A stretch of DNA of 221 nucleotides from the sequence record M10495.1. The stretch is one strand, 5' to 3'. Shown one piece after another: positions 1-221 of this stretch. Below the pieces are notes generated by a model, which saw only the letters and a program-made list of their open reading frames with translations, searched no databases and was not told where the DNA came from. The position numbers were made by a program, and so were the translations under genes. The stretch's first letter is position 1. Each line of letters starts with the position of its first letter. This DNA comes from a phage.

Positions 1-5
1 GGGGA

Positions 6-21
6 CCCCCCGGAAGGGGGG
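6..21 (+). other. 5'-terminal stem-loop; the 5' GGGGA (1-5) is left unpaired
   Basis: CCCCCC (6-11) is the exact reverse complement of GGGGGG (16-21): 6 bp stem, GGAA loop (12-15, GNRA-type). Checked by hand. Confidence 0.7.
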
Positions 22-72: not shown

Positions 73-86
73 AGCGCTTTCGCGCT
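73..86 (+). other. 5-bp hairpin with TTTC loop
   Basis: AGCGC (73-77) pairs with GCGCT (82-86); loop TTTC (78-81). Confidence 0.6.
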
Positions 87-92
87 CTCCCA

Positions 93-119
93 GGTGACGC
101 CTCGAGAAGAGGCGCGACC
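93..119 (+). other. Central hairpin with internal loop
   Basis: Core stem CGCCTC (98-103) pairs with GAGGCG (109-114), 6 bp, loop GAGAA (104-108). Outer GGT (93-95) pairs with ACC (117-119) across a small internal loop (96-97 and 115-116). Confidence 0.6.
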
Positions 120-120
120 T

Positions 121-143
121 TCGTGCGTTTCGGCGACGCACGA
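121..143 (+). other. 7-bp hairpin with 9-nt loop
   Basis: TCGTGCG (121-127) pairs with CGCACGA (137-143); loop TTTCGGCGA (128-136). Confidence 0.6.
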
Positions 144-197: not shown

Positions 198-200
198 TGA

Positions 201-214
201 CCCCCGAAGGGGGG
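201..214 (+). other. 3'-proximal stem-loop, mirror of the 5' hairpin
   Basis: CCCCC (201-205) pairs with GGGGG (210-214); loop GAAG (206-209). Confidence 0.65.
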
Positions 215-221
215 TTCCCCA
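215..221 (+). promoter_or_regulatory. Single-stranded 3' tail TTCCCCA: C-cluster initiation site for the replicase plus a terminal A
   Basis: Seen: bases 215-221 lie outside every local hairpin and end in CCCCA. Established knowledge: Qbeta replicase starts synthesis opposite a 3' C-cluster and adds a non-templated A. The tail could instead pair with 1-5 in a terminal panhandle (see findings). Confidence 0.6.

Follow-up and report, generated by a model that had tools for sequence, protein, structure and literature searches.

The ends of the sequence in record M10495.1 raise the question of whether the two strands of a phage-derived RNA carry the same terminal architecture, and whether such a likeness is what would be expected when a single enzyme must initiate on both strands. 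An earlier note, made from the sequence alone, had proposed both. We examined these proposals in the whole stretch of DNA available, 221 nucleotides (nt) long and referred to below as the window.

Identity of the 221-nucleotide RNA

We recognized the whole window sequence as that of a known molecule, which we take to be MDV-1 (+) RNA, the 'midivariant' that Qβ replicase copies in vitro. Two published MDV-1 plasmid primers match the window exactly and once each, at 66-81 on the plus strand and at 44-61 on the minus strand, and none of 200 shuffled sequences matches them. The comparison with published MDV-1 sequence covers 34 nt (both primers), over which no difference was detected. The primers point outward around position 63-64, named in the paper they come from as the MDV-1 insertion site; residues 60-63 form the loop of a predicted hairpin (54-59/64-69), so that the 63-64 junction lies at the loop edge. 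The short sequence around this site, AGTC (62-65), is left uncovered by the primers. Recent papers give MDV-1 (Mills, Kramer & Spiegelman 1973) a length of about 222 nt, against 221 nt here, and describe it as replicable by Qβ replicase. Besides the exact primers, the window shares with MDV-1 its GGGG...CCCCA ends, its non-coding character and its strong structure on both strands. We consider it very likely that the window spells out in DNA letters the MDV-1 (+) RNA, a non-coding parasite of 221 nt that Qβ replicase amplifies exponentially, and that 1-21 and 199-221 are its replication termini.

Coding potential was considered and rejected: the only two open reading frames in the window have 25 and 29 codons. 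Readings at the DNA level (transposon inverted repeat, CRISPR repeat, terminator) were dropped given the MDV-1 identity and the homology to Qβ described below. Both strands fold much more stably than shuffled sequences, with z-scores of -8.1 (+) and -7.8 (-), and 71.5% of the residues are paired in the best fold of each.

Database searches returned little. An Rfam scan at a permissive E-value found no family above its gathering score, only sub-threshold chance matches. The best of these, PhotoRC-I (18.6 bits against a threshold of 45), is the sole match with an E-value below 0.01; it covers only a C5-UUCG-G5 hairpin at 200-216 (-), and we rejected it as a chance resemblance to a generic stable tetraloop hairpin. 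Searches with blastn gave only chance matches of 25-54 nt in the plasmids of PLSDB, where cloned MDV-1 is absent, and no match in E. coli genomes, hence no sign there of a part derived from host RNA. Exact scans returned nothing, either for the 5' 27-mer in viral contigs or for an internal 27-mer (118-144) in metagenome and genome contigs. Within the window, AGGTGAC occurs twice (92-98 and 195-201), inside a 19-nt repeat that is 74% identical between 83-101 and 186-204, and CGAGGTG also occurs twice (23-29 and 193-199). These short internal repeats may be traces of duplication or recombination at the origin of the molecule.

The terminal GGGG/CCCCA clusters and hairpins of MDV-1 were described decades ago, and their confirmation here adds nothing new; our full-text literature search for the terminal sequences themselves found no paper printing them.

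Sequence symmetry of the two termini

The plus strand starts at 1-21 with GGGGACCCCCCGGAAGGGGGG, that is, GGGG-A-CCCCCC-GGAA-GGGGGG, exactly as had been described from the sequence. Its 3' end (200-221) reads A-CCCCC-GAAG-GGGGG-UU-CCCC-A. On the opposite strand, 220..201 gives the 20-nt sequence GGGGAACCCCCCTTCGGGGG, after which comes T (position 200), and the 5' end of the minus strand reads GGGG-AA-CCCCCC-UUC-GGGGG, equivalently UUCG-GGGG, then U. The architecture that the earlier note assigned to this end from 201-220 holds, but its 'UUCG-GGGGG' has one G too many, making 21 letters out of a 20-base interval. The terminal features are the following.

1..4 (+): 5'-terminal GGGG, from the sequence; its complement is the 3'-terminal CCCC of the minus strand.
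6..21 (+): predicted 5' hairpin C6-C11/G16-G21 with loop GGAA (12-15); on the minus strand, the 3' hairpin C6-UUCC-G6.
200..215 (+): predicted 3' hairpin, A200-U215 plus C201-C205/G210-G214, with loop GAAG; on the minus strand, the 5' hairpin with loop CUUC or UUCG.
217..220 (+): 3' CCCC, start site of the replicase for copying (from the sequence and PMC5850383).
221 (+): 3'-terminal A, an untemplated adenosine from the replicase, outside the symmetry (PMC5762825, PMC5850383).
1..5 and 216..220 (+): terminal clamp helix G1-A5 : U216-C220, from the best structure with hairpins forced; with both hairpins in place, it holds the molecule closed.
201..219 (+): 3' arm of the predicted panhandle, 209-219 pairing with 1-11 and 201-205 with 16-20 in the minimum-free-energy (MFE) fold of both strands.

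The symmetry of the two 5' ends begins at the complement of 220, and A221 is without counterpart. Aligned without gaps, the 5' 21-mers of the two strands agree at 15 of 21 positions; the 5' stem has six G-C pairs on the plus strand and five plus an A-U pair on the minus strand. The end-to-end similarity score was equalled in 12 of 5000 dinucleotide-preserving shuffles of the window. Part of this likeness is automatic, because a run of C paired with a run of G reads identically after reverse complementation and will appear as the same stem on both strands. The description of near-identical stems with differing loops thus holds, but is partly trivial: the C6/G6 stem is self-reverse-complementary and the loops are near-complements (GGAA versus UUC(G/C)). 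What the two hairpins share within each strand is the sense of their loops, GGAA and GAAG on the plus strand, UUCC and CUUC on the minus strand. A repeat search returned both an inverted repeat (1-11 versus 209-219, 91%) and a direct repeat on one strand (8-21 versus 201-214, 13 of 14 positions identical, 93%), and of the two descriptions that of a direct repeat is the more informative.

Template requirements of Qβ replicase

Qβ replicase needs a 3' CCC, a 5' stem, an internal C/U-rich domain and a long-range 5'-3' interaction (PMC4652763); the last is also given as a template requirement in PMC6847885. Initiation occurs de novo, the penultimate C being the first templating base and the 3' A serving as a platform (PMC5850383), and the replicase adenylylates the 3' end without a template before release (PMC5762825). 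According to the literature, template and product are both copied in each round. Since both serve as templates, each strand takes the form GGGG...CCCC-A: a 3' CCCC on one strand implies a 5' GGGG on the other, and likewise a 5' hairpin on one strand implies a 3' hairpin on the other.

As far as sequence and modeling go, all four requirements are present on both strands. The plus strand ends in CCCC-A (217-221), and the complement of 1-4 provides CCCC at the 3' end of the minus strand. Hairpins that can supply the 5' stem lie at 6-21 of the plus strand and at nt 6/7-20/21 of the minus strand; they are predicted in isolation, in sequential folding and in near-MFE folds, whereas the MFE fold spends these bases on the panhandle. 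The C/U tracts, which are candidate enzyme contacts, are CUCUCCC at 85-91 (+) and CCUCUUCUC at nt 109-117 of the minus strand (window 105-113). The 5'-3' interaction is predicted between G1-G4 and C217-C220. The proposal of a single enzyme that must initiate on both strands is correct, and long established for this molecule: MDV-1 is a Qβ replicase template, both strands of which are copied from a de novo start at the 3' CCC(A); exponential amplification of both MDV-1 strands by this enzyme is stated in the literature.

These elements suggest the following mechanism. The replicase would start primer-free, with GTP opposite the penultimate C of the 3' CCCC-A, and copy to the 5' GGGG, after which one untemplated A would be added. 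Each strand would then have to begin with GGGG and end with CCCC-A, so that a short terminal inverted repeat would be forced upon the molecule. The G/C hairpin inside each terminus would fold once about 21 nt had emerged, and may have three roles: to supply the 5' stem needed by the enzyme, to stop the growing strand from annealing to its template as dead-end double-stranded RNA, and to limit the 5'-3' contact to a GGGG(A):(U)CCCC clamp of 4-5 bp. The second role can be set against predicted energies. The plus/minus duplex reaches -557 kcal/mol versus -284 kcal/mol for the two folded strands; the duplex is so much more stable that single-stranded products must be kinetically protected, and a 5' hairpin that folds quickly as it emerges could plausibly hold the product away from its template. 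A literature model of double-strand formation is consistent with such a strand-separating role.

Terminal hairpins and the end-to-end panhandle

Folded in isolation, each terminus forms the hairpin listed above, at -11.1 to -14.3 kcal/mol and with 64-98% of the local ensemble: the 6..21 (+) hairpin has -14.3 kcal/mol and 98%, and the 200..215 hairpin has -13.1 kcal/mol on the plus strand and -11.1 kcal/mol on the minus strand. Such energies are ordinary for the base composition (z between -1.1 and +0.3). The special trait of these ends is the placement and symmetry of their G and C runs, not the stability of the hairpins.

Full-length folds give another picture. The MFE and centroid folds of both strands are without terminal hairpins; instead the ends pair with each other, 1-11 with 209-219 and 16-20 with 201-205, in a panhandle with pairing probabilities of 0.75-0.82 on the plus strand and 0.59-0.79 on the minus strand. 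This panhandle is interrupted by a 4x3 internal loop in which the loops 12-15 and 206-208 are opposed. The earlier note expected terminal hairpins when either strand is folded, and in this it was only narrowly right: they are missing from the MFE folds, but suboptimal structures containing both lie just 0.3 (+) and 0.2 (-) kcal/mol higher. In the full-length equilibrium ensembles, hairpin pairs have probabilities of 0.17-0.19. The single-stranded 3' tail that it also envisaged is not predicted, the 3' CCCC pairing with the 5' GGGG in essentially the whole ensemble. Pairing of G1-G4 with C217-C220 is predicted in both conformers (probabilities 0.72-0.998; 0.72-0.73 for the in-register pairs 1-4 : 217-220), residues 1-4 are paired with a probability above 0.99, and only A221 is unpaired at the 3' end of either conformer (GGGG(A) : (U)CCCC). 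Freeing the 3' CCCCA alone would cost about 8 kcal/mol, and structures without any end-to-end pairing make up 2-6e-5 of the ensemble.

Folding of the growing chain favors the hairpins. On the plus strand, from n=20/21 to n=216, almost all prefixes have the 5' hairpin in their MFE structure, with a brief displacement near n=132, and the panhandle appears only upon addition of the last four bases. On the minus strand, the 5' hairpin is likewise in the MFE structure of nearly every prefix, with alternative 5' pairings at several intermediate lengths, and the panhandle is first seen at n=219. An estimated direct-path barrier of about 19 kcal/mol separates the hairpin conformer from the panhandle. 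Isolated folds, sequential folding and this barrier together favor the hairpins as the form that actually arises, and the modeling suggests that the hairpin form would be the active conformer. There is a precedent in the literature: in SV-11, template activity belongs to a metastable hairpin form, and the MFE rod is inactive.

The functional structure might instead be the full panhandle (1-11/209-219 and 16-20/201-205), whose paired termini the enzyme would see as one element, in the manner of the polymerases of segmented negative-strand viruses; the same architecture on both strands would then merely reflect a need for terminal complementarity. The panhandle does dominate the predicted ensembles of both strands, as given above, and a long-range 5'-3' interaction or 'terminal helix' is among the requirements for efficient Qβ replicase templates (PMC6847885, PMC4652763). 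Its advantage of 0.2-0.3 kcal/mol is, however, smaller than the energy model's error, the 5' hairpin is the first of the two structures to form as the strand is made, and the barrier just described opposes rearrangement. The hairpin conformer also has a terminal helix (1-5/216-220), so that the 5'-3' requirement does not separate the two structures, whereas 5' stems are a separately listed requirement (PMC4652763). The panhandle is limited by the lack of complementarity between the loops, and in SV-11 it is the long end-to-end rod that is inactive. We regard a functional panhandle as improbable. A more elaborate version would give each conformer a part: hairpins with the 5-bp clamp and the 16-bp interrupted panhandle would have been tuned to equal energy through their same-sense loops, and the RNA would be a built-in switch in which the fresh hairpin form is active and slow conversion to the panhandle retires or protects old molecules, loop orientation being the selected property. 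This last idea seems to us a long shot, somewhat less credible still than the panhandle by itself. The hairpin form, closed by its short clamp, is the structure that we prefer.

Loop orientation and imperfect self-complementarity

That the molecule is not simply self-complementary had been correctly noted, and the consequence can be gauged in silico. In one model 200-220 was made the exact reverse complement of 1-21, and in a second 1-21 was made that of 200-220. With such exact inverted-repeat termini, the fold goes from -143.5 to -162.1 or -157.8 kcal/mol, that is, 14-19 kcal/mol deeper, a continuous 21-bp terminal duplex is formed, and the probability of the hairpins is 0.000. Given this result for a perfect repeat, it is the same sense of the loops that keeps the hairpins competitive: with loops of the same sense on one strand, the ends cannot zip up into an uninterrupted 21-bp panhandle, in which the start site would be buried. 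The orientation of the loops may for this reason be a property under selection.

Kinship with Qβ RNA and possible origin of the ends

In its minus-strand reading, 187-220 is 88% identical to nt 1-34 of the Qβ plus strand, whose complement forms the 3' terminus of the minus strand. A second region, 79-126 (+), which includes the C/U tract at 85-91, aligns colinearly with Qβ (-) nt 81-128 (79%, ungapped, E=6e-7 in a small local database). The similarity of 1-19 to Qβ (+) 2-20 (84%, E=1.7) is weak by itself. From these alignments, MDV-1 (+) has the look of a Qβ minus strand that has lost most of its length and in which a second hairpin of the Qβ (+) 5' type has taken the place of the original 5' end.

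The internal region, 79-126, looks like a conserved replicase-contact element common to MDV-1 (+) and Qβ (-). Within it, CUCCCAGG and CCUUCGUGC are invariant in six minus strands of the Qβ group and in one IMG/VR fragment, and the stems of two adjacent hairpins vary. Application of alifold to the alignment of this region gave no consensus structure, and the sequences of the faecium group did not align. A degenerate form of the internal pattern retrieved from viral contigs one Qβ-like fragment and four long contigs (13-45 kb), the latter presumably by chance. The fragment, IMGVR_UViG_3300019210_000229 (1195 nt, environmental), appears to be a Qβ-like 3' genome fragment without roughly the last 30 nt; it is the sole natural match to the conserved internal motif among short contigs (region 1040-1195 (-), aligned at 1091-1165 (-)).

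This kinship offers a different account of the likeness between the two ends. The near-identity of the hairpins may be a historical by-product of recombination or copy-back from Qβ RNA, with both ends derived from the Qβ (+) 5' hairpin, while replication requires no more than GGG...CCCA and 'some' stem. The similarities of the minus-strand 5' end to Qβ (+) 1-34 and of the plus-strand 5' end to Qβ (+) 2-20 fit this account, as does the colinearity of the internal region, which points to a shortened Qβ minus strand with its 5' end (GGGAGGAG...) replaced; moreover, ten natural genomes carry hairpins unrelated in sequence on their two strands, both of which replicate. Yet a short, low-complexity hairpin of G and C runs provides weak evidence of descent at 84% over 19 nt, and the large structural effects of a perfect repeat in silico suggest that the sense of the loops may be selected. 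As a replacement for a functional explanation, we consider the by-product account unlikely, although it has more in its favor than any other alternative weighed here; it explains origin rather than mechanism, and does not conflict with the functional account. Near-identical hairpins, which are particular to MDV-1, may be a trace of its origin. We can give almost no credence to the notion that the resemblance of the ends is biologically meaningless and arises by chance from a G/C-rich, low-complexity sequence. The window does have a G+C content of 66-74%, and shuffled termini reach folds of much the same stability as the native ends. The rarity of an equal similarity among the shuffles and the recurrence of the same end architecture in the ten phage genomes nonetheless effectively refute it; the window is, besides, a known replicase template, and its 3' segment shares homology with the 5' end of Qβ. 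A functional reading of the termini, as ends shaped by initiation of one replicase on both strands, is the one retained below.

Comparison with other replicating RNAs

We examined ten Qubevirus genomes: Qβ TW18, BZ1 and Anc, MX1, M11, SP, NL95 and three FI strains. All ten have GGG at the 5' end of both strands and a 3' CCCA, and a G/C hairpin is found within the first 25-35 nt of both strands in all but the SP (+) record. The stem varies compensatorily between groups (CCCCCC/GGGGGG versus GGCCCC/GGGGCC). Unlike MDV-1, which has no genes at all and carries the same type of hairpin at both ends, these phages have 5' hairpins that are unrelated between strands, CCCCCC-UUAG-GGGGG on the plus strand versus GAGGGC...GCCCUC on the minus strand; identical hairpins are therefore not required. 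Their extreme ends make only a short GGG:CCC contact, at -5 to -14 kcal/mol versus -26.5 kcal/mol for MDV-1. In the phage SP record (X07489, 1-30), the 5' end GGGGGUAGGGGGGAUAAAGGGGGCC differs from that of NL95 and FI (GGCCCC...GGGGCC) such that the conserved 5' hairpin can no longer form; the discrepancy is probably a G/C compression error in an old sequence, not biology.

Other small templates of Qβ replicase, including RQ135 and other RQ RNAs, MNV-11, SV-11 and DN3, resemble MDV-1 in their GGG...CCCA termini (as in the DN3 sequence) and in the amplification of both strands. Small templates of this kind also need 5' stems and the 5'-3' interaction (PMC6847885, PMC4652763), and are unrelated to MDV-1 in sequence. 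The two conformers of SV-11 differ by about 32 kcal/mol, against the 0.2-0.3 kcal/mol that separates those of MDV-1.

A more distant parallel concerns viruses with panhandle promoters. In influenza viruses and bunyaviruses, owing to partly complementary termini, one polymerase meets similar ends on genome and antigenome. The likeness to MDV-1 is one of analogy only: sequences, enzymes and hosts are unrelated, and we claim no membership for MDV-1. In contrast to those panhandles, the complementarity of the MDV-1 ends is broken by the same-sense loops, and local hairpins compete with it. The MDV-1 panhandle is indeed the MFE structure (probability about 0.8), yet it contains the 4x3 internal loop, is isoenergetic with the hairpins and is predicted to be kinetically disfavored.

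Implications

MDV-1 is a founding model for RNA self-replication, for in-vitro evolution and for amplification vectors based on Qβ replicase. For such molecules the plain minimum-energy fold is misleading, as it displays a panhandle in place of the hairpins. The finding that same-sense loops block a 21-bp panhandle bears on the design of replicable RNA vectors. The general architecture of the ends, in turn, is common to all templates of this enzyme family.
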